This document shows, piece by piece, positions 773 through 53,500 of a DNA stretch of 64,000 nucleotides (its first letter is position 1; the number at the start of each line of letters is the position of its first letter). The notes below the pieces were generated by a model, which saw only the letters and a list, made by a program, of their open reading frames with translations, was not told the DNA's origin and did not search any database. The position numbers and the translations under genes are program-made. Where the stretch lies: assembly GCA_964396265.1 (NCBI GenBank), contig CAYNEM010000006.1:60789-124788 (forward strand), written 5' to 3'. Origin of the DNA: an uncultured Methanomassiliicoccales archaeon. Lineage in GTDB: Archaea > Thermoplasmatota > Thermoplasmata > RBG-16-68-12 > EA-27.

Positions 773-846
773 CGCAACTCCCCGTTGGGGAATGAGTCCA
801 TCGGATAAAGACCCGCTCCGTAAAGCCGCGACTCGAAACCTTCATA

Positions 847-15658: not shown

Positions 15659-16998
15659 GTCCCCTCGCCTTCGAAGGTGCTCAGGCCGCCGCGCGCCTTC
15701 GGCGCCTCCCCGCGCATCGCCGCCAGCTCGCGCACCTCCTTCGAATCCTCGTCTGCGTCGAGCAAGAACGCGAGCTCCTTTTCATCGAGGAAGAGCGCCG
15801 CCGCCATCGCGCGCCGGAACTCCGCGTCCGCCCGGAACACCTCTTTGAAGGACGGGAGGACGTCGAGGGCCGTGCGCCGCCAGGACGCGTGGGTGCTCCC
15901 GCCGATCTTCCGACACACGGACTGCGTGGTCTGGCGGCGCGATCGGGTACGCGCCATCTTCGACAGCCACAGCGGGAACCGGTACGGCCCGCCGCCAGCA
16001 CGGCCGTGCCGCGCCACCGCCACCCCCGCGGTCATCATGTCGGACGCGTACGCCCAGAAGCGGTACGCCTGCACACGCCGCACCCGCCCCAGCCACACGT
16101 CCGCGCGAGAGAGCGCCTCGTACCCTCGCGCGAGGTCGTCGGGGTCGCGATACTCGTAGGGGAGGTTCTCGTCGATCCACAGGATGAGGTCCTCCGGGTC
16201 CTTGTCCAGGTTGTCCGTCGCGCGACGCGCGCGTCTCGCGTCCCCGGATTGGAAGATCTCGCGGAGTGCGTCGAACACGTTGCCCTCGACGTCGCGGTCA
16301 CCCAGCTTCACGACGTCTGCGGCGGGGACCACCTTCTTGCCCTCCGCGAGCGCCTGCAGGTCGTTCATCGCGCTCCGGAGGTCCCCGGCCGCATGGGCAG
16401 CAATCGCGTCGAGCGCCTCCTCGGAGAGGGACACCTCCTCCGTGTCTGCGGCGCGCTTCAGCGCCTGCTTCACGGCCTGCAGCGTGAGCCGGTTGAACTT
16501 GATCTGCCTTGTGAGGGACTTGATCGATCCGGACCGGCGGGACAGCTCGTAGTAGTCATTGCAGATGAGGACAATCGGCTGGCGGGTCTGGCGGATCGCG
16601 TCGACGATCGCGCCGATGCCGCCGAAGTCCTCGCGGCCGAACAGGTTGTCCGCCTCGTCGAGGATGATGACCGTGCGCTTCCCCTCGGAGGTCCGCAGGA
16701 ACTCCCCGGTCGCCGAGAACGTCTGCGTGATCGCCCCCTGGAGCGCGATCTTGCGTACGGCCTCCGCGTTCCGCTTGTCCGAGGCGTTCATCTCGACGAC
16801 GCCCCACCCCATGTCCGCCGCCAAGGCAAGCGCAGAGGACGTCTTCCCGACCCCCGGGGGCCCACTGAGGACGACCGCCCGCTTCTCCGGCGGCTTCTTG
16901 CGCCACGACTCCGCCCATCGCTTCAGATCCTGGATGGCGGTCGGGTTGCCGCATACGTCCTTCAGGGTCTTCGGGCGGTGCTTCTCGGCCCAGTCCAT
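15655..16998 (-). CDS. rfcL: replication factor C large subunit
   Basis: N-terminus MDWAEKHRPKTLKDVCGNP.. Walker A LSGPPGVGKTS, DEAD-like ILDEAD, and the RfcL C-terminal domain. Confidence 0.92.
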   Translation of the reverse strand: MDWAEKHRPKTLKDVCGNPTAIQDLKRWAESWRKKPPEKRAVVLSGPPGVGKTSSALALAADMGWGVVEMNASDKRNAEAVRKIALQGAITQTFSATGEFLRTSEGKRTVIILDEADNLFGREDFGGIGAIVDAIRQTRQPIVLICNDYYELSRRSGSIKSLTRQIKFNRLTLQAVKQALKRAADTEEVSLSEEALDAIAAHAAGDLRSAMNDLQALAEGKKVVPAADVVKLGDRDVEGNVFDALREIFQSGDARRARRATDNLDKDPEDLILWIDENLPYEYRDPDDLARGYEALSRADVWLGRVRRVQAYRFWAYASDMMTAGVAVARHGRAGGGPYRFPLWLSKMARTRSRRQTTQSVCRKIGGSTHASWRRTALDVLPSFKEVFRADAEFRRAMAAALFLDEKELAFLLDADEDSKEVRELAAMRGEAPKARGGLSTFEGEGT

Positions 16999-17121
16999 GA
17001 GGGTGGGAGCGCGTGAGCGGGTTTAAGGGCTCGGCTCGCACCGCCGAAACTACTCCGAACATACCGGACGGAAGTAAACATTAAGCCTCAGTCGGAGTTC
17101 CCCGCCTCGGGAGGAAGCCCC

Positions 17122-35300: not shown

Positions 35301-36388
35301 TCGCCGCCGCCGCCGAGATAGGTCATGTAGATGAGGGAACTGAGCGTGCGATCCAGCTTCGCCACGAAGGCGTCGACTGTTCCATTGAGCGTTTCGTCGA
35401 AAGACCCGAGTGTCGCTGTGAAGTTCGCGGACTCGGTCTCCCCCGTCACGTAGGCATTGCCGTCCGCGTCCACAGCGATGGCGGTTCCCCCGTCGGCGCC
35501 GGGCCCGCCAAGAAACGTAGCGGTGAGGAGAGGGTCGATCACCAAGGGTTTAGAGCCTTCCACCCCTTGGCATCGCAGGCCGTAGGAACGAGGACCGCGA
35601 GGGACGAACGCGCACGGAACGCGATCTGCTCCTTGATATGCGATCGGCGCGGAGTCGGTGAGACTCCCCACGGATGTTTGGATCCACGCGTTGCCGGCTC
35701 CATCAATCTCAATCCCGTCCGCACCATCGTACACCAACGTGATGTCCTCGGGGCTTACGCCCGCAAGGAGGTGGAACTCGTATTTCACGCCAGTAGGAGT
35801 TGCGCGGTAAATGAGATCCACGCCTCGATATAGATCCTCATACACGACCTCGCCGTAACTCCGGACGCCCGTCCGCCAGAGAGCGGGATCGCTTCCCAGG
35901 AAGAAGTGGCTCAGATGGGGGCTGGGTTCCCTCGCCCGCGGGAGTACATCGTTCGCACCTTCGAACAGGAGCTGCAGCATCACTCCCCTCGAGTGGGCAG
36001 ATCCGTGCAGCTGTGCCGTGGGCATCATCGGATGACGTTCGTCTCCCATCGACGATTGCGAAGTCTCGACGACTTTGAGGAGAACGGAGCTCTCCGCAAA
36101 TCCCGCTTGGAGATCCCGCGATACGATGTAGAACCGCACATCTCGGTTGTGGATCTGACCTCGGTTTTCTATGAAAGATGAAGACACCGGTTCATCGAGA
36201 ACCCGGTTCGCAACCATCTCCATAGGAACGGACTGCGCTCTGTCCTCAGCGTTCATGTGATCACTGTCTGGCGAGGGGGCGATTCCGGCGAGGCCCGAAG
36301 AGACCGCGAGAAGAAGCGGCCAGAGCCACCACGATTTGTTCCGCGCGTCGAAACCTCGCGTTGGCATCTCTGACCTAAGCGAAATCAA
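32342..36388 (-). CDS. membrane-anchored beta-propeller (SBBP-type repeats) / CARDB protein with cytoplasmic tandem winged-helix DNA-binding domains
   Basis: Signal peptide. About 8 repeats of DAFVAKLNxTG..LxYATYLGGxGxDxGxxIAVDxxGNAYVTGxTxSxxFP (SBBP-like). CARDB segment. One TM helix (PFPLIWIVLAVTVSIAVSISWLY). C-terminal MarR/TrmB-like wHTH twice (..GMVVGYLAANPAANFAAIRADL..; ..LLLQRIRGTSGLTQKELAKDVGVSQPAVSYHISRM..). Confidence 0.8.
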   Translation of the reverse strand: MISLRSEMPTRGFDARNKSWWLWPLLLAVSSGLAGIAPSPDSDHMNAEDRAQSVPMEMVANRVLDEPVSSSFIENRGQIHNRDVRFYIVSRDLQAGFAESSVLLKVVETSQSSMGDERHPMMPTAQLHGSAHSRGVMLQLLFEGANDVLPRAREPSPHLSHFFLGSDPALWRTGVRSYGEVVYEDLYRGVDLIYRATPTGVKYEFHLLAGVSPEDITLVYDGADGIEIDGAGNAWIQTSVGSLTDSAPIAYQGADRVPCAFVPRGPRSYGLRCQGVEGSKPLVIDPLLTATFLGGPGADGGTAIAVDADGNAYVTGETESANFTATLGSFDETLNGTVDAFVAKLDRTLSSLIYMTYLGGGGEDRGRSIAVDTLGAVYVTGNTSSDNFPFTPNANDTALGGPSDAFVASLNATGAALLYASYLGGRGADGGNSVAVAPGGSVFLTGDTSSDDFPWRIGANDTTLGGASDAFVAKLNVTGGSLDYATYLGGSGNDSGLSIAVDSGGNAYVTGQVDSASFFPVTAGVVQETYGGGPGDAFVAMVNPAGTSLVYATFLGGSGLDEGSGIAVDGAGNAYVTGSTVEDVTNFTTTNGANDTTHNGVTDAFVAKVDPTGTALLYATFLGGAKRDYGYGIAVDRAGNAYVAGDTNSADFPPTPDANSTQNRGARDGFVTRLGPGGVVLDYSTYLGGRDLDFARSIALDSAGNAYVTGETQSSNFPSTFGAWDTDLDDSSADVNNWKDAFVAKFVWPSDLSVVPADIAFVPPLAVNPGEDLIIEATVHNEGVGVASAVRVRFFDGPPTGGFPIGTDQLIPQIGPFGGTGRASVTWTAWPSGAHDICVVVDSGDGIDELNESNNEACATIQVIFGPITALLIGQPNHTAPETYVTSVTPLSLSVLDRNGTGIRFTRYRIDNAPLWIDYVGPFSLLSEGEHLLGWYSEDNTGTREVARSARLRVDDTPPSTTLAIGEPKFVAADTFVNSSTALALAAADGGATPVGVALTEYRLDGDGAWTPYAAPLTLVGADGPRTLEYRATDLLGNNVAGVLRVVLDNTPPATTYTPDQGPFTTATRFTLSASDAGSGVDRIEYQVDNGSWIPYEVSFSLPAGDHVVVHRAWDRLNNQAVERAFLVTIVATPAAPFPLIWIVLAVTVSIAVSISWLYEYLRRSFWVPFAVLWARLTHGDILDHEKRGMVVGYLAANPAANFAAIRADLKMAMGTLTYHLWVLEKEGEIKSWRDGRFRRYAPYGHRVAEMQPRLTDIELLLLQRIRGTSGLTQKELAKDVGVSQPAVSYHISRMAALGVLRVERKGRAKRYTANLGDVPGDAGSQADRGSATDPEPVDETDDWGAPR

Positions 36389-36486: not shown

Positions 36487-39156
36487 GTGGGTGTTGCCAT
36501 GAAATTCGCGCTGCTATTCGGCGTTGTAGCGATCCTCCTCCTGAGCGTGAACTCCGGCGCTGCGCCCCCGTCCTCTGTGCTCTCCGGTTGGTCGGTCCCC
36601 GTGAATCTCGGCCCTATGATCAACTCAGACAGGGTAGACGGGGGGCCCACACTCTCCGAAGACGGCCTCACTCTCTTCTTCGGATCACAACGTGCAGGCG
36701 GGGCTGGCCTAAACGACATATGGGTCTCTCAACGGGCTCGCCCGGCAGATTCGTGGGGGCCCCCCGCGAATGTCGGCGCCCCCGTCAACACGGCTTGGTT
36801 CGATCAGGCGCCTTCGCTGTCACGCGACGGACACTGGTTGTTCCTCAACAGCAATCGGACGGGGACTTTCGGGCGCAATGACTTGTGGGTCTCCCATCGC
36901 GATAACGTCACCGACAATTTCGGCTGGCAGACCCCGGTCAATCTCGGCCCTGGAGTCAACACGGCATTCATCGACCAAGGCGCGAGCTACTTCGAGAACC
37001 ACTCCGGCGTCCCGTTGCTCTACTTCGGCAGCAACCGGCCAGGAATGGGTGCCTCCGACATCTACGTGAGCGCCCAACTGCCCGACGGCTCGTTCGGCCC
37101 CGCGGAGCTCGTCGAAGAGCTGAGTTCCCCGTATCAGGACCAGCGGCCGGTCGTTCGCTTCGACGGACTCGAGATGTTCCTCTTTTCCGACCGACCCGGA
37201 ACGCTCGGGGATTACGACCTGTGGAGCTCCAGCCGCAGGTCGGTATCCGACCCTTGGACCACCCCGGTGAACCTCGGCGCACAAGTGAACAGCGATTCAC
37301 CCGATCAGCAGGGGTGGCTAGCCTCCGACCGCCGGACCCTCTACTTCTCGTCCTCCCGCCCCGGTGGGATCGGAGGGCTCGACCTCTACGTGACCACTCG
37401 GGCCAACCGGCAGCCCAACGCCGGAGGACTTGGTGTGGGGCTTGAAGGCAGCCCCACGACGTTCGATGCTTCCGACTCACGCGATTCCGATGGAGACCCG
37501 CTCCAGTTCCGTTGGGACTTCACCGCCGACGGGAGGTGGGACACGGGCTGGAACTCAAGCTCAACCGCCATGTACACGTTCGGCGACGACTGGACGGGGA
37601 CGGCCCAGGTCCAGGTAACCGACGGTGATCTCACGGACGTCGCGACGGTGGCGGTCGCCGTTCGCAACACTGTGCCGTCACCCTTCGTCAATGCGGCGAC
37701 CCAAGAGCACGATCACAACTTGCCGCGAGGTCACTTCTACCCCCTCGACCCGATCACGTTCGATAGCGCCGCGTTAGACCCGGGGAGCGACGACCTCTCG
37801 TTCGCATGGGAATTCGGGGACGGCACGAGCCTCGCAGGCGGCACGTACTTCAACGACGGCCTTGGGCCGGACCCCCCGAACTCCCCGGGCGGCACAACCC
37901 CGTTCGCCGCGGAAGATCCCGTGCAGCACGCGTACGACCTGCCGGGGGACTACGTCGTCCGCTTGACCGTCCGGGACGACGACGACGGGGAGGCGACCGC
38001 AGAGTTCCCGATTCACATCACCTCAGCAATGGACCTCAAGCAGGAGGCAATCCAGCGAATCAAGGCGCTCAAGGAGCAGGCGCTCGACCACGGGGATTCG
38101 CGGTTCGTCCGCCACCTCGACGACGCGGAGCGGTCCGTGTGGATGAGCCTCGGCCATGTGGAACCGTTCCGGCCGGGGGGGATCAACGCGGCGACGGCCG
38201 CAGACGTTTCCGTGACGCGGAGCCGCGGCAACCGCGTCGACCTCGTCCTCGGCGCCTCGTGGACGCCGCGACTGAGAGGCTACGGTTCTCTCCTGGTGGC
38301 CTGGGACAACGGCGACGTCACCACCGTGGACTTGCCCGACCGTTGGCCCTGGAGGTCACTTCGCTACCACGGGGACGTGTGGATCGATGCGTGGAACCAG
38401 GACGTTTCGATCCTCTCAAGCCAGAATCGGTGGACGGGACAAGTGACCCTGCGGGTTGCTGTGCGCGACGTCAGCCACGGGTTCACCCTCTCCCTCGACG
38501 CGGACCCGGTCGCGAGCCTCACGTTCGCGTACAACGTGCGCCCATGGTGGACCGACGGAGTCCATCTCGACCCGACACACGGGCACCGGGTGTTCGACTT
38601 CGAGCGGAAGGCGGTGGAGTGCCTCGTCACCTTCACGCAGGATAACGACGACGATGAAGACGAGGACGGGGAGCGTGGCGGCATTGGCGTCCTCGATGGG
38701 GACCACGACCGCGAGGAACGCGGCGGTTGCCGCGACCGGGACCACGACGATGACGACGAGGATGAGGGGGACGACGATCGTGGGGACGAGGACGAAGACG
38801 GGCACGACGAGGACGACGGGTCGGACGAAGGCGTCCGCACCGTCCACTGCCGCCTCACGTCGCGCCTCTGGACGGACGCGCAGCGCGCTATCCTGGACGC
38901 GGAGTGCGACGCGATCGCGAATCTGCTTGTAAAGGCAGACGAGATCCTTGCCCGCATCGCGCTGGAGGAGGCGAAGGAGACGCCCGTCCGAGAGCCGCGG
39001 AACCAGGGCAGGGTGGACCGCGACATCGGGAGGGCCGAGCGGGCCCTCGTCAGGGGGCGCGCCGCGTGGGACGACTCCGAGTACGGGGACGCGATCCGGC
39101 AGTTCAGGAAGGGGTGGGAGCATGCGCAGCGGGCGATGCGGCTCGCGATGCGTTAG
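36487..39156 (+). CDS. secreted TolB-like (PD40 beta-propeller) / PKD-domain protein with His/Asp-rich acidic region
   Basis: Signal peptide. PD40-like repeats (PVNLGPxxNSxxxDxxPsLSxDGxxLyFxSxR.G..G..DlWvS) five times. PKD-like units. A D/E/H-rich tract (..DNDDDEDEDGERGG..DHDREERGGCRDRDHDDDDEDEGDDDRGDEDEDGHDEDDGSDEG..). Confidence 0.75.
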   Translation: MGVAMKFALLFGVVAILLLSVNSGAAPPSSVLSGWSVPVNLGPMINSDRVDGGPTLSEDGLTLFFGSQRAGGAGLNDIWVSQRARPADSWGPPANVGAPVNTAWFDQAPSLSRDGHWLFLNSNRTGTFGRNDLWVSHRDNVTDNFGWQTPVNLGPGVNTAFIDQGASYFENHSGVPLLYFGSNRPGMGASDIYVSAQLPDGSFGPAELVEELSSPYQDQRPVVRFDGLEMFLFSDRPGTLGDYDLWSSSRRSVSDPWTTPVNLGAQVNSDSPDQQGWLASDRRTLYFSSSRPGGIGGLDLYVTTRANRQPNAGGLGVGLEGSPTTFDASDSRDSDGDPLQFRWDFTADGRWDTGWNSSSTAMYTFGDDWTGTAQVQVTDGDLTDVATVAVAVRNTVPSPFVNAATQEHDHNLPRGHFYPLDPITFDSAALDPGSDDLSFAWEFGDGTSLAGGTYFNDGLGPDPPNSPGGTTPFAAEDPVQHAYDLPGDYVVRLTVRDDDDGEATAEFPIHITSAMDLKQEAIQRIKALKEQALDHGDSRFVRHLDDAERSVWMSLGHVEPFRPGGINAATAADVSVTRSRGNRVDLVLGASWTPRLRGYGSLLVAWDNGDVTTVDLPDRWPWRSLRYHGDVWIDAWNQDVSILSSQNRWTGQVTLRVAVRDVSHGFTLSLDADPVASLTFAYNVRPWWTDGVHLDPTHGHRVFDFERKAVECLVTFTQDNDDDEDEDGERGGIGVLDGDHDREERGGCRDRDHDDDDEDEGDDDRGDEDEDGHDEDDGSDEGVRTVHCRLTSRLWTDAQRAILDAECDAIANLLVKADEILARIALEEAKETPVREPRNQGRVDRDIGRAERALVRGRAAWDDSEYGDAIRQFRKGWEHAQRAMRLAMR

Positions 39157-42015: not shown

Positions 42016-43287
42016 TCACTTCCTCCGCAGTTCGTCGAGGACTTCCTTTGCGCGGTCCATGCGGACCTTCCGCTCTTTCACGAGGACCTCGGCGACCCGG
42101 TCGATCTCGTCGCCCGTTGCTCCGACCGTGGCGGCGATGTTCCGCGCGTGAAGTCCCATGTGCCCACGCTGGATGCCTTCCGTCGCAAGAGCGCGCAGAG
42201 CGGCGAAGTTCTGTGCGAGGCCGACGGAGGCGATGATCTCCGCGAGCTCCTGCGCGGACTTCACCCCGAGCAGTTTCACGTTCGCCTTGGCGGTGGGATG
42301 CACGGCCGTCGCGCCGCCAACGAGGCCCACCGCCATCGGGAGCTCAATCGTCCCGACGAGATCCCCATCCGCGTTCTTCTCCCACTTCGTGAGCGAGTGG
42401 TACCCGGGTCCGTGCGCCCACGCCGCGTACGAGTGCGCGCCCGCCTCGATCGCGCGGAAGTCGTTGCCGGTGGCGATCACGACCGCGTCGATGCCATTCA
42501 TGATCCCCTTGTTGTGGGTCGCGCATCGGAAAGGGTCGGCCTCGGCGAACGCATAGGCCTCGAGGATTCCCTCGATGACCTCACCACCTCCGATCGCCTC
42601 CTGCGAGAATACCGCCCGGGCCCGCGCGAGCCGCTTCACCGCCAGATTGGAGATGATCCGCAGGTACACGCGGCCGCCGGTGATCTCCTCGAGGTACGGG
42701 GCGACGGCCTCCGCCATCGTGTTCACCGCGTTCGCGCCCATCGCGTCCCGGCAGTCCACGAGGAGGTGGACGATGAGCATGGGGCCGCGGATCGTGGAGA
42801 GGACGCGGGCCTCGACGTCCTTCGCGCCGCCGCCGAACTTCACGAGGACGGGGTCCTTCTCGTTGCACATCTCCAGGATGCGGTCGCGGTGATGGAGGAC
42901 GGTCATCTTCGCCCCGTGCGGGTCCGGCACGTCGACGATCTGGACCTGGCCGATCATCACGGGTCCCGTCGTGCTGGCGGTGAACCCGCCCTTCGCGCGC
43001 GCCATCTTGGCCGCGTTGCTCGCGGCCGCGACGACGGAGGGCTCCTCGATCGCCATCGGCACGAGGTAGTCCCTCCCGTTGATCTGGAAGTTCACCGCGA
43101 TGCCCAGGGGCATGGAGAAGGTGCCGACGACGTTCTCGATCATCCGGTTCGCGAGGTCGAGCGGGAGCGCGCCGCCCTGGGAGATGGCGCTCGCCTCTGC
43201 GTCCGAGAACCCGCCAACGTCGCGAACGATCCTCAGACGCTCCTCAAGGCTGAGCTTGTAGAAGCCCGAGACTTCCGAGCTCTTCAT
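42016..43287 (-). CDS. hmgA: HMG-CoA reductase, class II-type
   Basis: 423 aa from ATG 43287. ..VDCRDAMGANAVNTMAE.., ENVVGTFSMPLG and GTVGG-like motifs match class II (P. mevalonii/Thermoplasma-type) HMGR. The ORF-track N-extension is R-rich junk. Confidence 0.88.
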   Translation of the reverse strand: MKSSEVSGFYKLSLEERLRIVRDVGGFSDAEASAISQGGALPLDLANRMIENVVGTFSMPLGIAVNFQINGRDYLVPMAIEEPSVVAAASNAAKMARAKGGFTASTTGPVMIGQVQIVDVPDPHGAKMTVLHHRDRILEMCNEKDPVLVKFGGGAKDVEARVLSTIRGPMLIVHLLVDCRDAMGANAVNTMAEAVAPYLEEITGGRVYLRIISNLAVKRLARARAVFSQEAIGGGEVIEGILEAYAFAEADPFRCATHNKGIMNGIDAVVIATGNDFRAIEAGAHSYAAWAHGPGYHSLTKWEKNADGDLVGTIELPMAVGLVGGATAVHPTAKANVKLLGVKSAQELAEIIASVGLAQNFAALRALATEGIQRGHMGLHARNIAATVGATGDEIDRVAEVLVKERKVRMDRAKEVLDELRRK

Positions 43288-43318
43288 GGGCCGACCCGCC
43301 GCGCGATGGCCGTGCGGG

Positions 43319-46300
43319 TTAAAGGCTTTCCTCGTTCGTGTCCTCGGCTTTCTCGGCGTCGCGCATCTTGCGGAGGTTCTGCTCGTATGCTTCCTTGGAG
43401 ATGCGTCCCTCCTTGTAGGCCGTGCGCAACCGCGTGACGCGGTCGACATCGCGCATCGCTTCCGGTGGTGCCTCGGCCGCCCCGGTCGGTTCCGCGTTCT
43501 CCCCTTCGGGAGTTCCCACGTCCTCGATCGGTTCTTTCTGCTTGCGCGTCGGCAGGCCCGGGACGCGGATCCCGTACCGCGGGAGGACGAACCCGAGCAG
43601 CACCCCGAGGAAGATGCCGACCACCGCCAAGCCCGCAGGCAGCAGGAGCGCGGACGTGCCCGCCGGCGCGACCACGACGATCGTGAACCGCTGCTCGTCG
43701 ACGTTGCCGACCGCGTCCCGTGCGACGACGACCACGGTGTTCGTGCCGTAGCCCAGGGTCACGTTCGTCTCGAACGCGCCGCCCGGCGCGGCCACGTTGA
43801 TCCCGTTCACGGTCACGAAGGCCCCGGGCTCCGTCGTCCCCGCGATGCGCACGATGCGCGACTCCGTCCGCGCGGGCGGCAACGGGGCGAACGTCATCGT
43901 GGGGTCGGAGGTATCCCGCACGGCGGACGTCGTGGCGGTCACCTGGTTGCCCGCGGGATCGCGGACGATCGCGGTGATCGTGTTCGTGCCCTCGACGCCA
44001 AGCGTGACGACCTCTCGGAACGAGCCATCTGCGCCGACGGTGGCGGCGTTGCCGTTGATCTCCACGACGAGCGTCCTCGGATCTGCGGGCTCCACGCCGG
44101 AGAGCGCGTCCCGGACGAGGCCCGTCACGAAGACTTGCGTCTCCCCCGTCGCGAAGACCTCGGTGGTGAACCGCGGGATCTCCGGCGCCACGAGGTCGCG
44201 GACGATCGAGATCACGTGGCTCGTCGGGTTGCCGGGGATCCGGTTGCCGGCGCCGTCCTGGTCGAACCAGTCCGTGGAGCTCACTATCACGGAGTTCGTC
44301 CCGTTCTCGAGCGCGACCGTCTCGGAGAACGCCCCCGTGGCGTCCGTTTGCGTCCAGTTCCCGCGGACGCGGTACGACGCAAACGGCTCCGTCGCGCCGA
44401 CGACCGCGTGCGTGTCGAGCGTCGTGTACACGAGGTCGGGGGTCGAGAAGGTGAGGATTGGTACGGTATCGTCGACCACGAAGGTGAACGTCGCGTTCGC
44501 GAGGTTCCCGGCACGGTCTCCGACCCAGGCGTCGACGGTGTGCGTGCCCTCCGACAGGACCGCCGAGGGCGAGTACGTGGCCGTCCCCTCCCAGAGGGCG
44601 AACCGGTTCGCACGCGTCGTGTACAGGATGCTGACAATCGTCCGCGAGGACACGTCGACGCCGTCCAGGAGGAACTGCACGGAGTCGCGATCCAGCTGCC
44701 CGAGGTCCGGGTCCTCGAGGCTCACGATGAGGTACGGCGCCCGGTCGTCTGTCGTCCGGTTGTCCGCGCGGTTGAGGTTGCCGCCGAGCGCGGCGACCTG
44801 GAAGCTCACGATGCTGGGAGCGGCGCGGTCCAGGGTGACGGACACGGGGATCACGACGACGCCCGGCGCGGTCGGCAGGCCGAGGAGCACCGCCCCGCCA
44901 TATGGTGCGTCGACCGTGTCGTTCGGGAAGTCCCAGGTCACGCTGAGCGTCACGGACGCGTACGCCGCCAGCCCGGACTCCGTGCCGTTCACGATCTCTG
45001 CGGGCCTCGGCGCCTCCGGGACCTGGTACCCCGTCCCGGTGTCGAGCGTGACCGCGACGTCCATGTCGAAGTGCCCGATGCCGCCGGGGACCGTGAACCC
45101 GAGGACCTTGACGATGTACTGCCCGTCCGCAGGGGCCACCCATGTCACGCGCTCTTCCGCGTCGCCGTCCGCATTATAGTTCCACAGGCTGCCGCCCTGG
45201 CACAGGCCGGGCGCGACGGGCTGGCAGTCGATCACGAGGTACTCCTCCGGGTCGATGATGCCGTTCGCGTTCCCGTCGCGGAACACCGCCATGTCCAGGT
45301 CCTCGACATCGGACTGGCCGGCGATGTGGACCTCGAGGATGAGCGCCTTCTCCACCGTGAAGATGTAGGAGAAGGAAGCCCGGAACATCCACTCGCCCCA
45401 ACCGGGGAAGTTCCACCAGGTCTGCACGTCCTGCGGGATCTCCAGGTCCGCGAAGGCGGTCGTCGTCGCGGGGCCGACGGCGGACGCGCGGAGCGCGGGG
45501 AAGTTCATGTTCGAGAGGAAGGGGAAGGTCTCGCGGCCGACGAGGGCCCGCGTCACGACGTCGAGGCTCGTGGGCGCGGACACCCAGCCCGCTTGGCCGA
45601 CCGTGAGGGTCGCGTTCGCCTCGAGCCCGCGGAGGGCGAACGCGCGGACCGCGATCACGTTGAGGCCGGGGCTCAGGTCGTACGCGACGACCTCCTCGCC
45701 GCCGCCCGTCAGGGTGCGGAACTCCGGCTTGTCGAGCTCCTCGCTCTTCGCGACCTGGCGCAGGGGGAATGGGCCGTACGTCGTGGCGCTGCCCTGCGTG
45801 GCGGCGTCGCCGCTCGCGCGGTTGAACGCGAAGGTGTCGACGTCGCTCGGGGCGTCCTGCCACGCGGTGCGCACGATGACGCGGAGTCCCGCGGGCGCCG
45901 CGAAGAGGCCCTGGTCCGGGATCTCGAAGAAGAAGAACCGCCAGTCGCCCATGTGCGGATTGCGAAGCCGCGTCCCGCTCGCGAGCGTCTTGTCGTAGCC
46001 GCCGAAGACGCGGTGGTTGTCGTACAGCGCGGTGCTGGCCAGGTCGCCGCCGAACGTGAGGGACGGCGCGCGGGACCCGACGTTCGCGAGCACGGGGATG
46101 GTCGTCGTCACGCCGTTCGTAGTGTCGCGCACGAGGATGGCGCCCTCGTACGAGCCGAGCGCCGCGGTCGGGGGCACGGTCATCGTGGCGGTGATCACCT
46201 GGGAGCTATTGCCGAGGACGTTGGCGGTGCCCTGAGAGAGGGAGACCCACGCCCACGGCGCGCGGTCGAAGAACTCGATCACGAACGTCCAGGCAAGGCC

Positions 46301-49300
46301 GTCGATGTAGACGGGGGTGCCCGTGTCCTCGAGGCTCAGGACGAGACCCTCATGGAGGGACGTCGCGGGGAACGCCGCGCGGACCTCGAGGACGTTCGAC
46401 GTGTGGAACGTCTCGCCGACCGTGTTCAGCTCGTCGCGGAAGAACGCGGGAGCGGGGAACGGGTCGACCCCGACCCAGCGCGACCACTCGATCGTCCAGT
46501 CGTACGCACGCAGCGCGTACGAGTAGTTCGTCTTGAACTGCGTCCCTTGGTGTTCGACGAGCCGTCCCAGGTCTGCGTACGCGGTCACCTTCACGAGCTC
46601 CGCGTTCGCCCAAAGGCCCGCGATGGGTGGAGAGACCCGGATGCCGGTAAACGTCGTGCCGTCGACCTTCCATACTCCCGTCCCGTTCACCCAGAGGGCG
46701 ATGTCGCCGTTGGGCTGGTACGCGTCCCTGCGCGTCGCGTTGGCATGCACGTACTGGCCGATCTTCCGATAGGCGACCGCGTCGAGGTTCGTGGAGATCG
46801 CGGCCGTGCCGTGGTTCCTCAGAGTGAGCGCGAGCGGCGAGACACCCCCCGCATACAGGAGTCGCGTGAAGGCGGCGTGCGTGTTCCCTCGGTACGCGCC
46901 GGGATGCCACATCGGCGGCGTCACCTCGAGGCCTGCATCCGCGGTCCCCGCCGCGAGCCGCACGGAGCGCGAGACGTTGAGATATCCCGACCCTTGAGTG
47001 AGGACGTCGTGGCCTGCGTCGTCCGCGCCCGACAGGAGGAGCGACCGTACCTCCGAGACCGTCGGCGTGCGATTATTCGCCGCCGTGAACGCCTCGTACA
47101 CGAGGGCCGCGGCCCCCGCAACGACCGCAGCAGAGACGTCGGAGCCGATCATCGCTGCGGAGGTTACCGCCGAGCTCCCGTCCCCGGCGGCGTGGAGGGG
47201 GATCGCGAGGGTCGCGGTGTCCGCCGCCAGGAGCTCCGGCTTCACGAACCCTTGCGCGCTCGGGCCCCGCGACCCGGGGATTGCCGGGGCCCTCGCATGG
47301 GGGTTCGGCCCCTCGGGCCCGCCGGTCAGCAACGACTGCATCGTGAAGTCGCCCGCACGGCCGGCGGCGAGCACGTTCGGTCCGGAGGCGGGCGAGGCGA
47401 CCGTCCCGTACCCGAAGCCGTAGTCCCCCGCGCTCGCCACGAAGACCGCCCGTCCCCCGGAGTAGGTCGTGGACAGATAGTCGGCGGTGCGGGACGAGAC
47501 GTCCCAGCCGTCGTTGTGGACCGTCGGGAAGTTGAAGGCGCTCACGACCACGTGCGCGTCGTCGGTCGTCCCGACGGTGGCATCGTACCCCTCGACCGCG
47601 AACGTCCACGACTCCACCACGTCGCTCAGACCGTTCATGATCGTGATGAGCCGGCTCGCGTCGGCCAAGCCCGTGAGCGGCGTCGGAAGCCTTCCCTGCG
47701 CGACGATCGCGCTCGCGATCCGCGTCCCGTGCTCCGACTTCGCGCCGGTGATCGCGTCCACGCCGAAGTCCCCGGCGAGCGCGACGAGGTCGCCCGCCCC
47801 GGGGATGCGCATCAGGAGCCCCTCCGCAGCTTTCCGAGACAAGAGCCGTGCGGAGTACGGGACGGGGTTCACACCGTCTGCGATGAAATACACCATGCCC
47901 GCGGACACGTCCGGATACCCGTCCTGCCCCGGCAGCCCAGTGGTCGCGTTGTACGAGTCGAGCGCCGCGATCGGGCTCGCACGCGATGCGAAGACGTCCG
48001 TCGGGTCGAACACCTTGTCGTCGTTCATGTCGAAATAGACGCGGTCGTACTCGCTCGCGTTCGCCGTGTCCACGACGAGGAGGCCGAGGGCCCCGAACTC
48101 CCTCTGCACGGTCGGCGCGGGGTGGAAACCGAAATGGAATACTCCGGAGGCGCTCGTGAGCCCGGCGATCGAGTACTGCTCGATCTCCCGCCAGACCCAG
48201 GCGCTCAGGCTCACCCAGCCCGGGGTGAAGTCGAGGTTCTGGAAATCGACGTTCTGGTCCGAGGGCACGGTGTCCTGCGCACGGGACCCGGTCTCGTGCA
48301 TGGAGAAGAGGGTCGCGGACACCCCGGACGGATCGCCGAGCAGGGCCCGCGGGATCGAGAACTCGTTGAACAGCTGCTCGCCGAACTGGAACGCCGCTTG
48401 GGTGCCGCCCACGCCGAGCAGCGGGGAGGGCTCCCAAGCCCCCGAGGTCGCGTTCCACGCGTACCAGGTGCCAAACTCCATCCCGTGCACGTACTTGTTC
48501 TCCCGGTCCTCGTAGCGGCTGAACCCGTGCGCGAGGAGGGCGTAGTCCGGTCGGTGCGCGACGAACGTGCGGATGTACGCCCCGCCGGATGTCCACGACT
48601 TGGCGGTGAGGTCCCCGCCGCCCGTCGCGACCTCCCCGAGGACGGACCAGTGCACCGCGTACAGAGCGCCCGGCTGCGGGGTCTGGCGCACGAATGCGCC
48701 GCTGGCGTCGTACACGAGGAACGAGGGGGAGATGGAGGGCGAGAGGCCCTGCGTGGCCACGACGAACTGCGCGCCGCTCGGCGACCAGTCCGCCGCCAGG
48801 ACCCAGCTCTGGGCCTCGGGAAGCGTCGCAAGCAGGAGGGGGGCCGGGGGCGTCATGTCCCACAGTTTGGCGGTGTCGTCCCGCGCGCCGGTCACGAGCC
48901 GCGCCCCCGAAGGAGACCACGAGACCTCGACCACGGGCTGCGAGTGAGAGGAGGCGGTCTTGAGCGGGGTCGCGCGGACGACGGGCGTCGTGGGCTGCAC
49001 GTTCGTCCCGTTCAGCGAATAGACGACCGCGTTGTTCGTCCCGAGCGCGACCGCGATCTGGTCCGGCGCGCCCGGGCGGAACGCCACCGCATTGACCTCC
49101 GTGTTCTCGGCCCAAAGCGTGCCGAACTTCGTGCCCGTCGCGACGTCGAAGAAGTGCACGAACTTGAACGTGCTCGCGGCGATCCACGTGCCGTTCGGGC
49201 TGAAGGCGAGGATGCCGTTCTCGCTGATCGCCACGTCCCCGAAGGGCACGTACTGGATCTGGCGGACCAGACCACCCGTGGCCGCATCCCAGAGGCGCAG

Positions 49301-50314
49301 GAAGTCTTTGTCCGCGCTCGCGACCTTCGTGCCATCGGGGGACCATGCGACGCTGAGGGGCTCGCTCGCGTGGCCTGACATCGTATGGAGCACGGCGCCA
49401 GTCCGGTCCCAGAGGCGGACGAGGCGGTCTCCCGCCACGGTCGCGAGCTTCGACCCGTCGGGGGACCATGCGACGTCGTTCACGCGGTCCGCGTGCGACG
49501 CGTTCGTGTCGACGGTCGCGCCGCCCGGGGCCACGTACGCCCCGCTCGTCTCGTTGTCCACGTCGAACAGCACGACGAACGAGGCGTTCTGATCGCGCAG
49601 ATAGGCGGGATATCCCACGTACCAGTTGTCGTCGTCGCGCGTGATGGACAGCGTCGTGAGGTCCCAGTCCGCCTTGTCGCCGCCGGGCGCGCCGGCGCTG
49701 TTGTCCCGCGGGTCCGTGGCCCACCGCTCGCGGTCCCCGAAGTCGTTCGTACCGTCAACACGGATCGTGTGCGTGACGTCGAAGGGACCCGCGCCCGTCC
49801 TCGTCGTGTTTGCGAAGTACGTCGTGTCCGCGAAGCCCGTGCGGAGGTACGTCGTGAGGGACCGTGGATCGTAGACGATCGGCCAGCCGAAGTACGTCGA
49901 GTTCGGGTCCGTCACCACCGCCTGCGTGCCCTGGAGGTCGAGGTGCCCGAAGTCCAGACCCTCGTCGACGACCGCGACGCGCACGCCGGAACCCCGGTAT
50001 CCTAGGGACCACGCATCGTCGAATCCGTGGTTCGTGACGACGTTCGAGAGCAACGGCTGAGGCCCGACGGGCCCTTCCAAGGGCTGCGGGTAGCGAGAGG
50101 AAGGGTATTCCGCCAGGGGATCCGCCTCCGCGACGGGCTTGGCGGCGGAATCGGGGGCGATCGGGACGTCGCCTCCGGACTGGGGGACATCGGTCGCCGG
50201 CGGCATCTCCGCTGCAGCGCGGGGGGCGATGGGATAGCCCGCGAGGATCGAAAGGGCCAGAACCGCCACGAGGGCGACGGCTGAGACCCTCTGGCGGGGG
50301 TACCTCCTCCCCAT
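43319..50314 (-). CDS. giant (2331 aa) cell-surface protein: S8 subtilase-like domain interrupted by WD40 propeller, many beta-rich domains, C-terminal TM anchor and SHOCT-like tail
   Basis: Signal peptide. Subtilase Asp box AWSLGYRGSGVRVAVVDEGLDFGHLDL. About 700 aa with WD40 repeats (WSPDGSKLATVAGDRLVRLWD..). His box SEHGTRIASAIVAQG. An atypical Ser region (IGSDVSAAVVAGAAALV). TM (LAVVGIFLGVLLGFVL). C-terminal LRTAYKEGRISKEAYEQNLRKM (SHOCT-like). Confidence 0.8.
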   Translation of the reverse strand: MGRRYPRQRVSAVALVAVLALSILAGYPIAPRAAAEMPPATDVPQSGGDVPIAPDSAAKPVAEADPLAEYPSSRYPQPLEGPVGPQPLLSNVVTNHGFDDAWSLGYRGSGVRVAVVDEGLDFGHLDLQGTQAVVTDPNSTYFGWPIVYDPRSLTTYLRTGFADTTYFANTTRTGAGPFDVTHTIRVDGTNDFGDRERWATDPRDNSAGAPGGDKADWDLTTLSITRDDDNWYVGYPAYLRDQNASFVVLFDVDNETSGAYVAPGGATVDTNASHADRVNDVAWSPDGSKLATVAGDRLVRLWDRTGAVLHTMSGHASEPLSVAWSPDGTKVASADKDFLRLWDAATGGLVRQIQYVPFGDVAISENGILAFSPNGTWIAASTFKFVHFFDVATGTKFGTLWAENTEVNAVAFRPGAPDQIAVALGTNNAVVYSLNGTNVQPTTPVVRATPLKTASSHSQPVVEVSWSPSGARLVTGARDDTAKLWDMTPPAPLLLATLPEAQSWVLAADWSPSGAQFVVATQGLSPSISPSFLVYDASGAFVRQTPQPGALYAVHWSVLGEVATGGGDLTAKSWTSGGAYIRTFVAHRPDYALLAHGFSRYEDRENKYVHGMEFGTWYAWNATSGAWEPSPLLGVGGTQAAFQFGEQLFNEFSIPRALLGDPSGVSATLFSMHETGSRAQDTVPSDQNVDFQNLDFTPGWVSLSAWVWREIEQYSIAGLTSASGVFHFGFHPAPTVQREFGALGLLVVDTANASEYDRVYFDMNDDKVFDPTDVFASRASPIAALDSYNATTGLPGQDGYPDVSAGMVYFIADGVNPVPYSARLLSRKAAEGLLMRIPGAGDLVALAGDFGVDAITGAKSEHGTRIASAIVAQGRLPTPLTGLADASRLITIMNGLSDVVESWTFAVEGYDATVGTTDDAHVVVSAFNFPTVHNDGWDVSSRTADYLSTTYSGGRAVFVASAGDYGFGYGTVASPASGPNVLAAGRAGDFTMQSLLTGGPEGPNPHARAPAIPGSRGPSAQGFVKPELLAADTATLAIPLHAAGDGSSAVTSAAMIGSDVSAAVVAGAAALVYEAFTAANNRTPTVSEVRSLLLSGADDAGHDVLTQGSGYLNVSRSVRLAAGTADAGLEVTPPMWHPGAYRGNTHAAFTRLLYAGGVSPLALTLRNHGTAAISTNLDAVAYRKIGQYVHANATRRDAYQPNGDIALWVNGTGVWKVDGTTFTGIRVSPPIAGLWANAELVKVTAYADLGRLVEHQGTQFKTNYSYALRAYDWTIEWSRWVGVDPFPAPAFFRDELNTVGETFHTSNVLEVRAAFPATSLHEGLVLSLEDTGTPVYIDGLAWTFVIEFFDRAPWAWVSLSQGTANVLGNSSQVITATMTVPPTAALGSYEGAILVRDTTNGVTTTIPVLANVGSRAPSLTFGGDLASTALYDNHRVFGGYDKTLASGTRLRNPHMGDWRFFFFEIPDQGLFAAPAGLRVIVRTAWQDAPSDVDTFAFNRASGDAATQGSATTYGPFPLRQVAKSEELDKPEFRTLTGGGEEVVAYDLSPGLNVIAVRAFALRGLEANATLTVGQAGWVSAPTSLDVVTRALVGRETFPFLSNMNFPALRASAVGPATTTAFADLEIPQDVQTWWNFPGWGEWMFRASFSYIFTVEKALILEVHIAGQSDVEDLDMAVFRDGNANGIIDPEEYLVIDCQPVAPGLCQGGSLWNYNADGDAEERVTWVAPADGQYIVKVLGFTVPGGIGHFDMDVAVTLDTGTGYQVPEAPRPAEIVNGTESGLAAYASVTLSVTWDFPNDTVDAPYGGAVLLGLPTAPGVVVIPVSVTLDRAAPSIVSFQVAALGGNLNRADNRTTDDRAPYLIVSLEDPDLGQLDRDSVQFLLDGVDVSSRTIVSILYTTRANRFALWEGTATYSPSAVLSEGTHTVDAWVGDRAGNLANATFTFVVDDTVPILTFSTPDLVYTTLDTHAVVGATEPFASYRVRGNWTQTDATGAFSETVALENGTNSVIVSSTDWFDQDGAGNRIPGNPTSHVISIVRDLVAPEIPRFTTEVFATGETQVFVTGLVRDALSGVEPADPRTLVVEINGNAATVGADGSFREVVTLGVEGTNTITAIVRDPAGNQVTATTSAVRDTSDPTMTFAPLPPARTESRIVRIAGTTEPGAFVTVNGINVAAPGGAFETNVTLGYGTNTVVVVARDAVGNVDEQRFTIVVVAPAGTSALLLPAGLAVVGIFLGVLLGFVLPRYGIRVPGLPTRKQKEPIEDVGTPEGENAEPTGAAEAPPEAMRDVDRVTRLRTAYKEGRISKEAYEQNLRKMRDAEKAEDTNEESL

Positions 50315-50337
50315 GACATCGCGCGATGCTGCCGCCG

Positions 50338-50432
50338 TTATTTATATTGATGCCCGGAGCGTCGGGATCGTGCCCTTATCACCGAGCGCTCTGATTATTA
50401 TCCAGTACAATGAATTAATATAGACGCCACCT
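50338..50432. promoter_or_regulatory. AT-rich divergent promoter region between the two giant peptidase genes (TATA-like AATATAAATA for the minus gene; TTAATATAG for the plus gene)
   Basis: A 222-bp intergenic region, markedly AT-rich. TATA-like boxes lie about 30 nt from the minus-gene ATG and about 115 nt upstream of the plus-gene ATG. The plus gene has the SD-like GGAGTGGGG. Confidence 0.5.
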
Positions 50433-50536
50433 TCGAAAGGGAGGGACAAGGTGCGGGTCTGGGGAACTTTGAAATACCCCGGCCCTCTTAGCCGAGATTC
50501 GGGACAGGGTTTCGGGCTAGCCAGGGGAGTGGGGTC

Positions 50537-53500
50537 ATGCGTTTCGTCCGCTTTGCCGGTGTCGTCGCAATTGCAATCGCTTTCGTCGTGATCACGTCGC
50601 CGATCCGGGCAGGACCGGTCGCGGACGCGATGGGCTCGGGGGGCCCGGTCGTGGTCGTCGATTCGTACCGGATGGACCCGGGAGCACTGGTCGCTTCCGG
50701 GGCGAAGATCCTCGTCGACTACGATAACGGGTACCTCCTCATGCGCCTCCCACGGGCGAGCGCGAGCTTCTTGAGCGCCCTTCCGGGGGTCGACCCGCTC
50801 GAGGGGCGGACGCAGATCGACCTCTTCTTCTCCGGAATCGACTTCGACACCGCCGTCGCCGAGCCCGCGTTCACAGGGGGCATGGACGCCCCGACGGACG
50901 GGGCGTACCTCCTGCAGTTCCTCGGTCCCATCCGGAGCGAGTGGCTCGCGGACCTCGAACGGCAGGGCTTGGTGTTCGACCAGTACCTCGCGAACTATGC
51001 CTTCGTCGTCCGGGGCACGCCCGCGGCAATCGGGGCCGCGAAAGCCTCGCCCTTCGTCTCGTGGGTCGGCCCGTACCGTGCCGGGTACAAGATGTCGGCG
51101 GACCTCCTCGAGCACGAGGGCCTCGTCGACCTGTTCGTCGTCGGCTTTGGCGGCGTCGATGCGATGGTCCTCGCCCAGCACGTCGGGGCGACGGGCGCGG
51201 GCGTCGAGTCCATGTGGCCGTCCCCGGCCACCGTCCTCGCCCGGGCCCCCGCGTCCCTCCTGCTCGACCTCGCGAAGCTCCCGGACGTCCTCTACATCGA
51301 GGAGCGTTTCCCGTTCGTCACGATGGACCGGATCGCGGGTCAGATCCACAAGTACCACCCCGCGTGGGACACGAGCCGCAGCGGTCTCACGTCGAAACTC
51401 ACGGGCCGCTCCCCGGGCCCGGACAATACCATGTACAATTCGGACGATTACTTCGAGGGCGCGGGCATCCTCGACACCGGCTTCGACGAGGGGGACCCGA
51501 ACGACGGCACCCCCGACTTCTTTGACAGCCCGAACGGGGACCGCGTCACCCGCCTCTTCCGACACACGGGGCCCACTTTGGACGGCAGGTGCGGGTCCGC
51601 GCACGGGACCCACGTGGCGGGGATCATCGCCGCGGACGGGTACTCATGGGAGCGAGATCTGATCGAGGACTCCGGAGACACTTCGGTCTCCGTGACGGAC
51701 CAGGAGTGGCACAAGTCCGAAGCCGGCGTCGCGCCGGAGGCGAAGATCTCCCTGGACGGCACGCAGAACGGGAACGACGTCTTCTGCAGCGCGGGGCTCG
51801 CCGCGAGCCCCGCGTACTGGGACTGCCAGTACCTCAACGGCTACATCACGGTCACGCTCACCGCTGGCGTCAGCTCCGCGATCTGCGGGGCGCCATGGAT
51901 CGACGGCGTGAACGTCGTTACGCATAATTCCGCGATCGGTACGGGCGCGCGGGCTTGGTTCGCGCTCCACAGCAACAGCTGGGGCAGCGGCTCGCGGACG
52001 TACGGCGCCACCGCGGGCGGCGCAGATGGCCGGACCAACTCGGCCCCGGAGAGGCTCATCGTATTCGCCGCCGGGAACGACGGGCCCGACGCGAACTCGG
52101 TCAGCGGCGAGGCGCTCCTCAAGAACGGCCTCTCCGTCGCCGCCGGGCAGAACTTCCGCCCGGAGCAGTTCGAGTCGGACAACCCGAACCTCTTGGCGAG
52201 CTTCAGCAGCCGGGGCGGCCCCGGGGAGAGCAGCGGCCGGATCAAGCCGGATATCGTCGGCATCGGCACGTCCGTTGTCGCGCTCTTCGCGAGGGGCGAG
52301 ACCCTCTCCACGGGCTTCACGGCGGGTGCGGATCTCATCAACGAGGTCGACAAATATTGCAGCATCCCGAAGACCTACTGCTCGGGGGGCGACGCAATCG
52401 CGGACTACCGGTACCTCCAGGGCACGAGCATGGCGGCGCCCCACGTGACGGGCGGCGCCCTCCTCGTCCGCGAGTACCTCCGGGAGGTCGTGGCAGGTAA
52501 CAACCCCGCCTCCCCGTACTTCAACCCACCCTCGCAGCTCGTGAAGGCGATGCTGATCAACGGCGCGGTCCGCATGGACCAGAACCTGTACGCGTATCCC
52601 GGATACGACCAGGGGTGGGGGCGCATGGACCTCGAGCAGTCCCTGTTCCCGCCGGTCCCGCGGACGAACCAGATCGACATCGGGGAGTTCACGAGCACGG
52701 GCTCGTGGTCGCCCTCGAGCATGAACCTCAACGTCGTCGGGAACGACGTGCCCGTGAAGGTCACGCTCGTGTGGATTGACGCGACCGGGGACGCGCTGTC
52801 GCGGAACCTGAACCTCGTGGTGCGTTCCCCGAGCGGCGCCGAGTACCATGGGAACCGTTATCTGAACGGGTGGTCGAACCCCAGCGACGCCGCGTACGAT
52901 GGGATCAACAACGTGGAGCAGGTCGAGGTTCAGACCCCGGAAATCGGCACATGGACCGTCGAGGTCCGCGGGGTGACGATCCCGACCGCCGCCAAATTCG
53001 CGCTCGTGTTCTCCGCGAACATCGGCCCGCAGTCGACGTACAAGGTGGACCTGAGCACGACATATTCCACGACCGTGAGCCTCGCGCCTCTGGGGTCCGC
53101 CGAGATCCCGCTGACGACCCTGAACTACGGCACGGGCCCGGACCAGGTGCAGCTGTCGTCCGGGGCCCCGGCCGGCCTGACGGTCACCTTCTGGCCGAGC
53201 AACGCGATCAACCTCGGGAGCGCGCAGTCCGCGAACGTCCTCGCGAACTTCACCGCCAGCGTCGCAATCACCCCCGGGATCTACGAATTCGACCTCCGCG
53301 CGCGGAGCGCGAACGATCCGAGCCCGACGCCCGCATCGGACTTCATCGCGGTGCGCGTCGAGGTGCTCAGCACCCCGCTGCCGTTCCCCCTCCAAGTCAC
53401 GAACGGGCCTGTCGACGAACTCGACCCGTCCGTCCTCGTCTTCGAGGACCCGCCGGGCAGCCGCCACATCTTCATCGCATACCGCAAGACCGCGCAGGTC

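Follow-up and report, generated by a model that had tools for sequence, protein, structure and literature searches.

A membrane-anchored archaeal surface protein with a split subtilase fold, aspartate at the catalytic serine position and a nested WD40 propeller

The stretch of DNA analysed here (the window) comprises 64,000 nucleotides of contig CAYNEM010000006.1 from an uncultured Methanomassiliicoccales archaeon, and the gene in question occupies positions 43319-50314 on its minus strand. This gene encodes a protein of 2331 residues (the giant), probably a membrane-anchored cell-surface protein of this Thermoplasmata archaeon and unlikely to be an ordinary protease. Its subtilase fold is interrupted between the Asp and His boxes by a composite insert that includes a WD40 beta-propeller. 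The catalytic Asp and His are kept, and aspartates stand at the positions of the serine nucleophile and the oxyanion-hole asparagine. Acidic residues at the nucleophile position define a whole clade of homologues, and our preferred reading is that the giant may serve as a non-proteolytic binding platform. The features of the gene, all on the minus strand, are as follows.

43319..50314, minus: whole coding sequence, 2331 aa plus stop codon; full-length homologues at 95-33% identity
50210..50314, minus: signal-peptide-like segment (residues 1-35; hydrophobic core 12-30), predicted from hydropathy as read from the sequence
49820..50032, minus: N-terminal subtilase piece with the Asp box (residues 95-165); D117 codon GAC at 49964-49966
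49520..49729, minus: beta-sandwich insert domain, first half (residues 196-265), from AlphaFold2 strands; b1-b2 contiguous in relatives without this propeller
48545..49519, minus: seven-bladed WD40 beta-propeller (residues 266-590), nested within the beta-sandwich
48200..48544, minus: beta-sandwich insert domain, second half (residues 591-705), from AlphaFold2 secondary structure and block hidden Markov models (HMMs)
47750..48178, minus: ancestral insert domain (residues 713-855; FHFGFHP...VYFDMNDDKVFD...SAGMVYFIADG), present in relatives with an Asp-His gap of ~200 aa
46940..47749, minus: C-terminal subtilase piece (residues 856-1125), from Pfam S8, the tripeptidyl-peptidase II (TPPII) alignment and family classification; it contains the next four codons
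47729-47731, minus: H862 codon
47423-47425, minus: codon of D964, oxyanion position
47138-47140, minus: codon of D1059, nucleophile position
47126-47128, minus: codon of A1063, the Pro225 equivalent
43670..46927, minus: extracellular stalk of ~ten beta-sandwich/Ig-like domains (residues 1130-2215), from Pfam, AlphaFold2 and Foldseek
43580..43669, minus: single transmembrane helix (residues 2216-2245; core 2221-2244), at the hydropathy maximum with basic residues after it
43322..43579, minus: cytoplasmic tail (residues 2246-2331, 86 residues) with a SHOCT-like motif
43364-43438, minus: SHOCT-like motif VTRLRTAYKEGRISKEAYEQNLRKM (residues 2293-2317), a sub-threshold DUF1707/SHOCT match

A single subtilase fold is split between its Asp and His boxes

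The three motifs on which the original prediction for this gene was built all lie within the 2331-aa protein: VRVAVVDEGLD at residues 111-121, HGTRIASAIVA at 862-872 and IGSDVSAAVVAGAAALV at 1056-1072. D117 and H862 are separated by 745 residues, a gap whose length had been put at ~720. The Pfam Peptidase_S8 profile (PF00082) matches residues 858-1109 with 48.7 bits against a curated cut-off of 21.8 (E=8.5e-13). This match spans profile positions 52-285 only, beginning just ahead of the His box and omitting the Asp-box part.

Each half of the catalytic domain finds subtilases separately. Among PDB sequences, the best match to residues 60-260 searched alone is the Asp32 region of Vpr (8jmw, E=2e-6), with further matches to the Asp32 regions of Tk-subtilisin-like enzymes, furin and subtilisins BPN' and E; VAVVD117EG aligns with subtilisins, furin and Vpr, placing the Asp32 equivalent in D-x-G after the first beta-strand. 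The sole match to residues ~735-1250 is Drosophila TPPII (3lxu), from the His box through the Ser box. Here H862-G-T, the His64 equivalent, aligns with the HGT of TPPII and is invariant in a 29-sequence alignment. The S8 match, the matches of the two halves and the WD40 match described below all lie well outside chance.

We modelled residues 60-1160 with AlphaFold2 using 29 family sequences (mean predicted local distance difference test score, pLDDT, 81.8). Foldseek with this model recognised the propeller alone. Vpr, the best sequence match of the Asp half, is also the best S8 fold match. Going by residue count, a 316-residue match to the subtilisin fold probably also takes in the N-terminal Asp-box strands of the model, since the segment after the His box accounts for only ~260 modelled residues. 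Together with the separate matches of the two halves, this fold match places D117 and H862 in one subtilase fold, in agreement with the proposal of a single fold interrupted between its Asp and His boxes.

Aspartates occupy the nucleophile and oxyanion positions

In three independent alignments, with TPPII, with the neighbouring S8 peptidase and with the family HMM, Asp1059 falls on Ser221 and Asp964 on the oxyanion Asn155. The giant reads GSDVSAAVVAG against GTSMAAPHVAG in the canonical Ser box, so that the Pro of GTSxAxP is also replaced, by Ala (A1063), and it reads ASAGDYG against ASAGNHG in TPPII. A motif search across the whole 2331-aa protein found no G[ST]SxA, and thus no canonical Ser box elsewhere. 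An atypical Ser box had been noted originally, with the suggestion of a pseudo-peptidase or a highly derived enzyme, and both the observation and the suggestion fit these alignments; the oxyanion Asn-to-Asp change had been missed. As the serine nucleophile is absent, we infer that the giant cannot work as a serine peptidase and has lost proteolysis in that sense.

The acidic state is shared by a clade of homologues

A word-indexed search returned ~25 full-length homologues at 95-33% identity, all in Thermoplasmata or 'Methanobacteriota' metagenome-assembled genomes, some of them called 'S8 family serine peptidase' by NCBI. The architecture was originally described as unusual, which it is, but these homologues in Thermoplasmata genomes mean that it is not unique. 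They also bear on the possibility of an artefact, whether through a mistake in sequencing or assembly or because an ordinary S8 peptidase gene is decaying into a pseudogene; the missing canonical Ser box is the sole point that speaks for it. The reading frame is intact across 6996 nt, its GC content at third codon positions (0.92) is like that of the remaining genes in this 67% GC window, and homologues of equal length occur in independent assemblies (JGI, ENA, NCBI), including a complete 1.99-Mb genome. Moreover, D1059 is encoded by GAC, which no Ser codon can reach in fewer than two nucleotide changes, and the replacement recurs in every close homologue. We therefore regard an artefact as excluded. 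A 2030-aa open reading frame on the plus strand (43286-49378), antisense to the giant, was rejected as a gene; it is an Arg-rich shadow frame of the type common in high-GC DNA.

With residues 525-1135 as query, phmmer was run exhaustively on 1.84 billion cluster representatives and yielded 478 matches at E<=1e-3 and 129 at E<=1e-30. Using HMMs from the family alignment, we classified 176 sequences by their residues at the Asp-box, His, oxyanion and nucleophile positions, in that order.

D-H-N-S: 89/176; canonical, most with an Asp-His gap of ~200 aa
D-H-D-D: 23/176; the state of the window protein; in addition, 3 partial sequences and 2 sequences with E at the first position
D-H-N-D: 6/176
D-H-E-E: 2/176
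D-H-N-E: 2/176
D-H-E-D, D-H-D-E, D-H-S-D: single sequences
Fully degenerate states such as T-Q-A-A and E-S-G-A: several sequences

In a neighbour-joining tree of 165 catalytic domains (rough BLOSUM distances, no support values), all 42 sampled domains whose nucleophile position is D or E lie within one clade. These domains have a mean identity of 46% and a minimum of 30%. His is retained in 41 of them, and at the oxyanion position 32 have D or E and 9 have N. In nearly all homologues the Asp32 equivalent is D or E. Two sequences, P0018 and P0122, carry coupled E/E variants at the oxyanion and nucleophile positions. Besides the Ser column, only the Pro-to-Ala change of GTSxAxP is fixed differently from the canonical relatives; 53 other conserved columns of the catalytic domain share their residue with them. 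Across loci the codons differ synonymously or conservatively (GAC, GAT, GAG; CAC, CAT). The clade-wide acidic state, the conserved scaffold and this pattern of codon change argue for a Ser-to-Asp replacement that is ancient, selected and specific, fixed rather than decaying. Like it, the oxyanion Asn-to-Asp change belongs to this deep clade and not to the window gene alone.

Six sequences nested in the acidic clade have lost these residues again (QDV, RNM, GDA, HNH, HDY, SNE). The sister group of the clade in this tree is fully degenerate, and a canonical-triad clade branches next outside the two. Members of the sister group are outright pseudo-subtilases. The architecture that they share with the giant thus works without catalysis, which is dispensable in it.

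The degenerate sister clade (P0134, P0137, P0164, P0169, P0151, P0145, P0147, P0191, P0201, P0203, P0212) consists of equally large proteins in which most or all catalytic positions are lost, for example as T-Q-A-A. The two whose full sequences were read, P0134 and P0137, retain the overall architecture, and P0137 retains the C-terminal KLKQAYEEGKISKELYEKNL tail. Many relatives (P0128, P0129, P0134, P0137, P0138, P0140, P0027) have a conserved N-terminal domain of ~70 aa ahead of the Asp box (KVxVATTNxxELxxxLxGxxYxGLIG...PxLEIP...), from which the window subclade is free. This domain may be a propeptide; Pfam, consulted for an I9-type propeptide, recognises nothing in it.

The insert nests a propeller in a sandwich and the sandwich in the protease fold

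The anatomy of the Asp-His insert was derived from AlphaFold2 secondary structure together with block HMMs run on the relatives. Pfam WD40 matches residues 266-522 with 87 bits against a cut-off of 27 (E=5.8e-25), and the modelled repeats close into a propeller of 28 strands in seven blades, with a template modelling score (TM-score) of 0.94 to a 7-bladed designed WD40 protein. WD40 repeats had indeed been predicted in this gap, but as an insertion of ~700 aa. The gap is instead composite: the propeller makes up ~325 of its 745 aa and sits inside a beta-sandwich, which is followed by a further domain of ~140 aa. Pfam recognised no domain in residues 1-270, 520-860 or 1110-1500.

Relatives with an Asp-His gap of ~200 aa contain only a domain of the type seen at residues 713-855. 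This ~140-aa domain is therefore the insert from which this subtilase group started, and inserts of its type are characteristic of pyrolysin-group enzymes such as TPPII. In relatives that have no propeller at this site, the block HMMs find the sandwich either contiguous or broken by a shorter non-WD40 stretch. In P0134, for example, the stretch is ...NFVNASAANRPEFAMY..., and its counterpart in the window protein is ...DTNASHADRV, then the propeller, then FVAHRPDYALL... Since the sandwich is uninterrupted by WD40 repeats in these relatives, the propeller is nested in the beta-sandwich, and the beta-sandwich in turn is nested in the protease fold.

WD40 propellers also occur in canonical-triad relatives, the main clade of which comprises P0025, P0027, P0138, P0158, P0163, P0165, P0167 and P0153. 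There the blocks run in the order sandwich-half-1, sandwich-half-2, FHFG domain, WD40, SGGMxYF, whereas in the window clade the order is sandwich-half-1, WD40, sandwich-half-2, FHFG, SGGMxYF. Because these orders differ, propellers entered the same insert region of the catalytic domain twice, independently and at different loops. Entry at two loops in two sister lineages suggests that the region is a hotspot for domain insertion. Canonical-triad WD40 relatives (P0025, P0027, P0040) had been considered as the ancestral state of the window's insertion, a candidate overturned by the block order of the main clade.

A beta-rich stalk leads to a membrane anchor and a short tail

The AlphaFold2 model of the stalk is all-beta (pLDDT 79.5). 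Pfam finds a weak PPC match (from residues 1500-1900), Big_13/HYR and three Glucodextran_B-like domains in this region. Its Foldseek matches include adhesin stalks, the S-layer protein SbsC, Ca-binding adhesins and C-terminal regions from TPPII and from a streptococcal envelope protease, a generic result in that only Ig-like or adhesin folds are matched. NCBIfam adds a weak Ca_tandemer match in the giant.

There are only two hydrophobic segments in the giant, at residues 12-30 and 2221-2244. The second is the hydropathy maximum, as expected for the C-terminal transmembrane anchor that had been predicted. The protein has 24 N-x-S/T sequons, compared with 12.5 +/- 3.2 expected, and every one of them lies N-terminal to the transmembrane helix. 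The two segments and the sequon excess ahead of the helix fit a type-I surface protein that is probably N-glycosylated.

The tail scores 19.3 bits against the DUF1707 SHOCT-like model (cut-off 27.6), and SHOCT itself (PF09851) reaches 13-15 bits against a cut-off of 27, in homologues only. With both below their gathering scores, the C-terminal G-[KR]-I-S-x-E-x-Y motif is a resemblance to SHOCT/DUF1707 only, so the SHOCT-like tail of the original prediction stands as a likeness of motif and falls short of the family cut-off. Very distant family members nonetheless carry one or several copies of a motif of the VTRLRTAYKEGRISKEAYEQNLRKM type at their C-terminal ends. SHOCT has been put forward as an oligomerisation module (PMC3581485).

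A canonical S8 peptidase is encoded divergently beside the giant

Three features flank the gene.

50537..55918, plus: divergent canonical S8 peptidase, 1793 aa, with HGTHVAG, AAGNDGP and GTSMAAPHV
50315..50536, unstranded: divergent intergenic region of 222 bp with AT-rich TATA-like stretches, shared by the giant and the S8 gene; a putative promoter region
42016-43287, minus: hmgA (HMG-CoA_red, E=6e-117), starting 31 nt past the stop codon of the giant

The 1793-aa neighbour, whose GTSMAAPHV bears out its earlier description as a canonical S8, has an N-terminal hydrophobic segment and none other among the top-scoring windows of the hydropathy scan. A canonical S8 of 1335-1808 aa is divergently adjacent to the giant in five of five loci, whose giants are at 33-62% identity, and one of these loci sits in the complete 1.99-Mb genome. 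On the side of the giant opposite the S8, gene content differs among loci. A recent paralogous origin of the neighbouring S8 was rejected: BLASTP between it and the giant gave a weak alignment of the catalytic core only (E=0.27), in which D1059 stands opposite the catalytic Ser. Zero to five unrelated genes separate the giant from hmgA in homologous loci, so the adjacency of these two genes, for which co-transcription had been proposed, is incidental and implies no functional link.

A binding platform and its alternatives

We favour, with a probability of about one half, the reading in which the giant is a platform for binding without proteolysis that descends from envelope subtilases of the pyrolysin/TPPII type. 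At the cell surface, the remodelled, strongly anionic cleft and the propeller would together hold a ligand, whether protein, peptide or cation. The giant would then dock or regulate the divergent canonical S8, or present substrates to it. This S8 has no detectable membrane anchor, and the giant probably works with it. The degenerate sister clade, the six secondary losses and the precedent of CspC and CspA, discussed below, all indicate a non-proteolytic role. Several observations weigh against such a platform, however. A near-invariant His beside a conserved carboxylate is how a working catalytic pair would be expected to look as well, and the known Csp pseudoproteases have lost their His too (PMC7200643). 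The S8 and the giant also belong to a broad syntenic block (GCD14 methyltransferase, S8, giant and, further on, hmgA, with GCD14 always beyond the S8), which makes their adjacency suggestive rather than proof of coupling; it may reflect shared ancestry instead. Furthermore, the neighbouring S8 is not a close paralogue of the giant.

Retention of the acidic residues could alternatively reflect a hydrolase with other chemistry, an unlikely possibility in which the Asp/His pair and a second carboxylate at the oxyanion position would act on a subtilisin fold, either with Asp1059 as nucleophile in the style of dehalogenases and epoxide hydrolases or with two carboxylates activating water. Such an enzyme would fit the His kept in 41/42 acidic-clade sequences, the D or E at nearly every Asp32 equivalent, the restriction of the nucleophile position to D or E across the clade, the preference for D or E at the oxyanion position (including the coupled E/E pairs) and the otherwise unaltered conserved scaffold, and its oxyanion-hole Asp would parallel the sedolisins. 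To our knowledge, however, no subtilase-fold enzyme has an Asp nucleophile, and we found none in the literature. The losses of these residues in six nested lineages argue against the hydrolase as well, as does the degenerate sister clade, in which the shared architecture functions without catalysis; and strict conservation of pseudo-active-site residues is likewise found in CspC, a genuine pseudoprotease (PMC7200643). A narrower form of this proposal, less likely again, would make the acidic clade a new catalytic type of clan SB, with Asp1059/His862/Asp117 plus Asp964 displayed at the surface and the nested WD40 propeller as a substrate-selecting lid. It is also doubtful that the giant is chiefly a structural, S-layer-like envelope protein, with the protease domain as scaffold, the carboxylates and His binding Ca2+ or another metal and the propeller making lattice contacts. 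Its size, Ig-like stalk, transmembrane anchor and sequon enrichment agree with that proposal, as do the Foldseek matches to SbsC and Ca-binding adhesins, the weak Ca_tandemer match, the architecture and tail retained in degenerate relatives, and a SHOCT-like tail that is common across the superfamily, given the oligomerisation role proposed for SHOCT (PMC3581485). Yet high abundance and lattice formation are unsupported, metal binding is speculative, and a structural role leaves unexplained why the His and the acidic pair are retained here and lost in the sister clade.

Other genes of the window

A serine recombinase gene (Resolvase and Recombinase domains) followed by an RFC-like AAA gene lies just past hmgA in four of four homologous loci (L001, L002, L006, L007); in the window, an RFC-like AAA gene is located elsewhere, at 15655-17022. 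An AAA_16-TPR gene close to the giant's homologue in L001 is similar to the window gene at 22665-24953 (minus), which encodes a STAND-like protein with an N-terminal Crp-type helix-turn-helix, an AAA_16 ATPase and TPR repeats. Two adjacent, divergent genes at 58319-59353 (minus) and 59297-60145 (plus) encode small GTPases of the Ras/Roc family (Pfam Ras, E=1e-25 and 3e-32), the former with an N-terminal extension of ~90 aa.

At 32342-36388 (minus), a 1348-aa protein combines six SBBP beta-propeller repeats, DUF7948 and CARDB with C-terminal HVO_0163-type and MarR-like winged-helix DNA-binding domains. From its domains, this protein resembles a one-component regulator that spans the membrane and has a large sensor outside the cell. 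Four further large surface-type proteins are encoded at 796-2679 (plus), 27003-29774 (minus), 36487-39156 (plus) and 60149-61879 (plus), with a PQQ/BamB-like propeller, PKD (four copies) plus Big_9, PD40 plus PKD, and a BNR sialidase-like propeller among their domains. This unusual wealth of large surface-type proteins suggests that this part of the genome is given over to the cell envelope.

Comparison with known systems

Few enzyme folds have been studied as well as that of the subtilases, whose Asp-His-Ser triad is described in textbooks. The fold of the giant, its pyrolysin/TPPII-type group, the concept of a pseudo-subtilase and WD40 propellers are all already known. Three elements appear to be undescribed in the searchable literature: the clade-wide combination of Ser-to-Asp and Asn-to-Asp with the His kept, the nesting of fold, sandwich and propeller, and the two independent propeller insertions. 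Our literature searches, incomplete in coverage, found no subtilase with an Asp-for-Ser replacement or a WD40 insert. If the giant is a pseudo-protease, it is an unusually well-conserved case that would show protease scaffolds being recycled into surface receptors; if it is catalytic, it would represent an undescribed solution on the subtilisin fold. Either way, the family documents nested domain insertion inside a catalytic domain, first of a beta-sandwich into the fold and then of a propeller into the sandwich. Since some homologues carry the label 'S8 family serine peptidase' at NCBI, metagenomic surveys that count S8 matches as extracellular peptidases in Thermoplasmatota would overestimate proteolytic capacity.

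The individual replacements have partial parallels in other enzymes. Haloalkane dehalogenases and epoxide hydrolases of the alpha/beta-hydrolase fold use Asp-His-Asp/Glu triads, with an Asp nucleophile beside a His general base. They provide a precedent for a Ser-to-Asp swap, an analogy only given their other fold and non-peptide substrates. Sedolisins (S53, clan SB) have the subtilisin fold with the oxyanion Asn replaced by Asp; they keep the Ser nucleophile and replace His with Glu, giving a Ser-Glu-Asp triad. The giant shares only the oxyanion Asp with them, having lost the Ser and kept the His. A general Pfam scan of the giant, in which no comparison was aimed at S53 models, reported no S53 family.

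The closest relatives lie in the pyrolysin group. TPPII has an Asp-His gap similar in size to the ~200 aa of the giant's canonical relatives. With the pyrolysin/TPPII group (S8A) the giant shares a large Asp-His insert, a long C-terminal extension (1200 aa) and its closest similarity, TPPII and Vpr being the best matches, and like TPPII (3lxu), Vpr (8jmw), pyrolysin and the STABLE protease it combines the big insertion with a beta-sandwich extension. It differs from them in having Asp for Ser221 and Asn155, a 745-aa insert with beta-sandwich and nested WD40 propeller, a transmembrane anchor and a SHOCT-like cytoplasmic tail. It also has no recognisable propeptide, its Asp box starting ~60 residues past the signal peptide. 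TPPII and Vpr have been assigned to the pyrolysin group, in which envelope association is known (PMC9549277). The giant thus appears, from sequence comparison, to descend from large envelope subtilases of the pyrolysin/TPPII type.

In Clostridioides difficile, two pseudoproteases of the pyrolysin group, CspC and CspA, are encoded next to the active CspB, which they regulate, and CspC shows strict conservation of its pseudo-active-site residues (PMC7200643; PMC9549277). Unlike the giant, they have lost the His as well (Thr170/Gly485 and Gln757/Ala1064), whereas the giant keeps its His and has exchanged the Ser for a charged Asp. The Csps are also soluble spore proteins with retained, uncleaved prodomains and have no propeller, stalk or membrane anchor, while the giant has no prodomain-sized region ahead of its Asp box. 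What the giant and the Csps have in common is a pyrolysin-group fold without the catalytic Ser, encoded beside an active S8.

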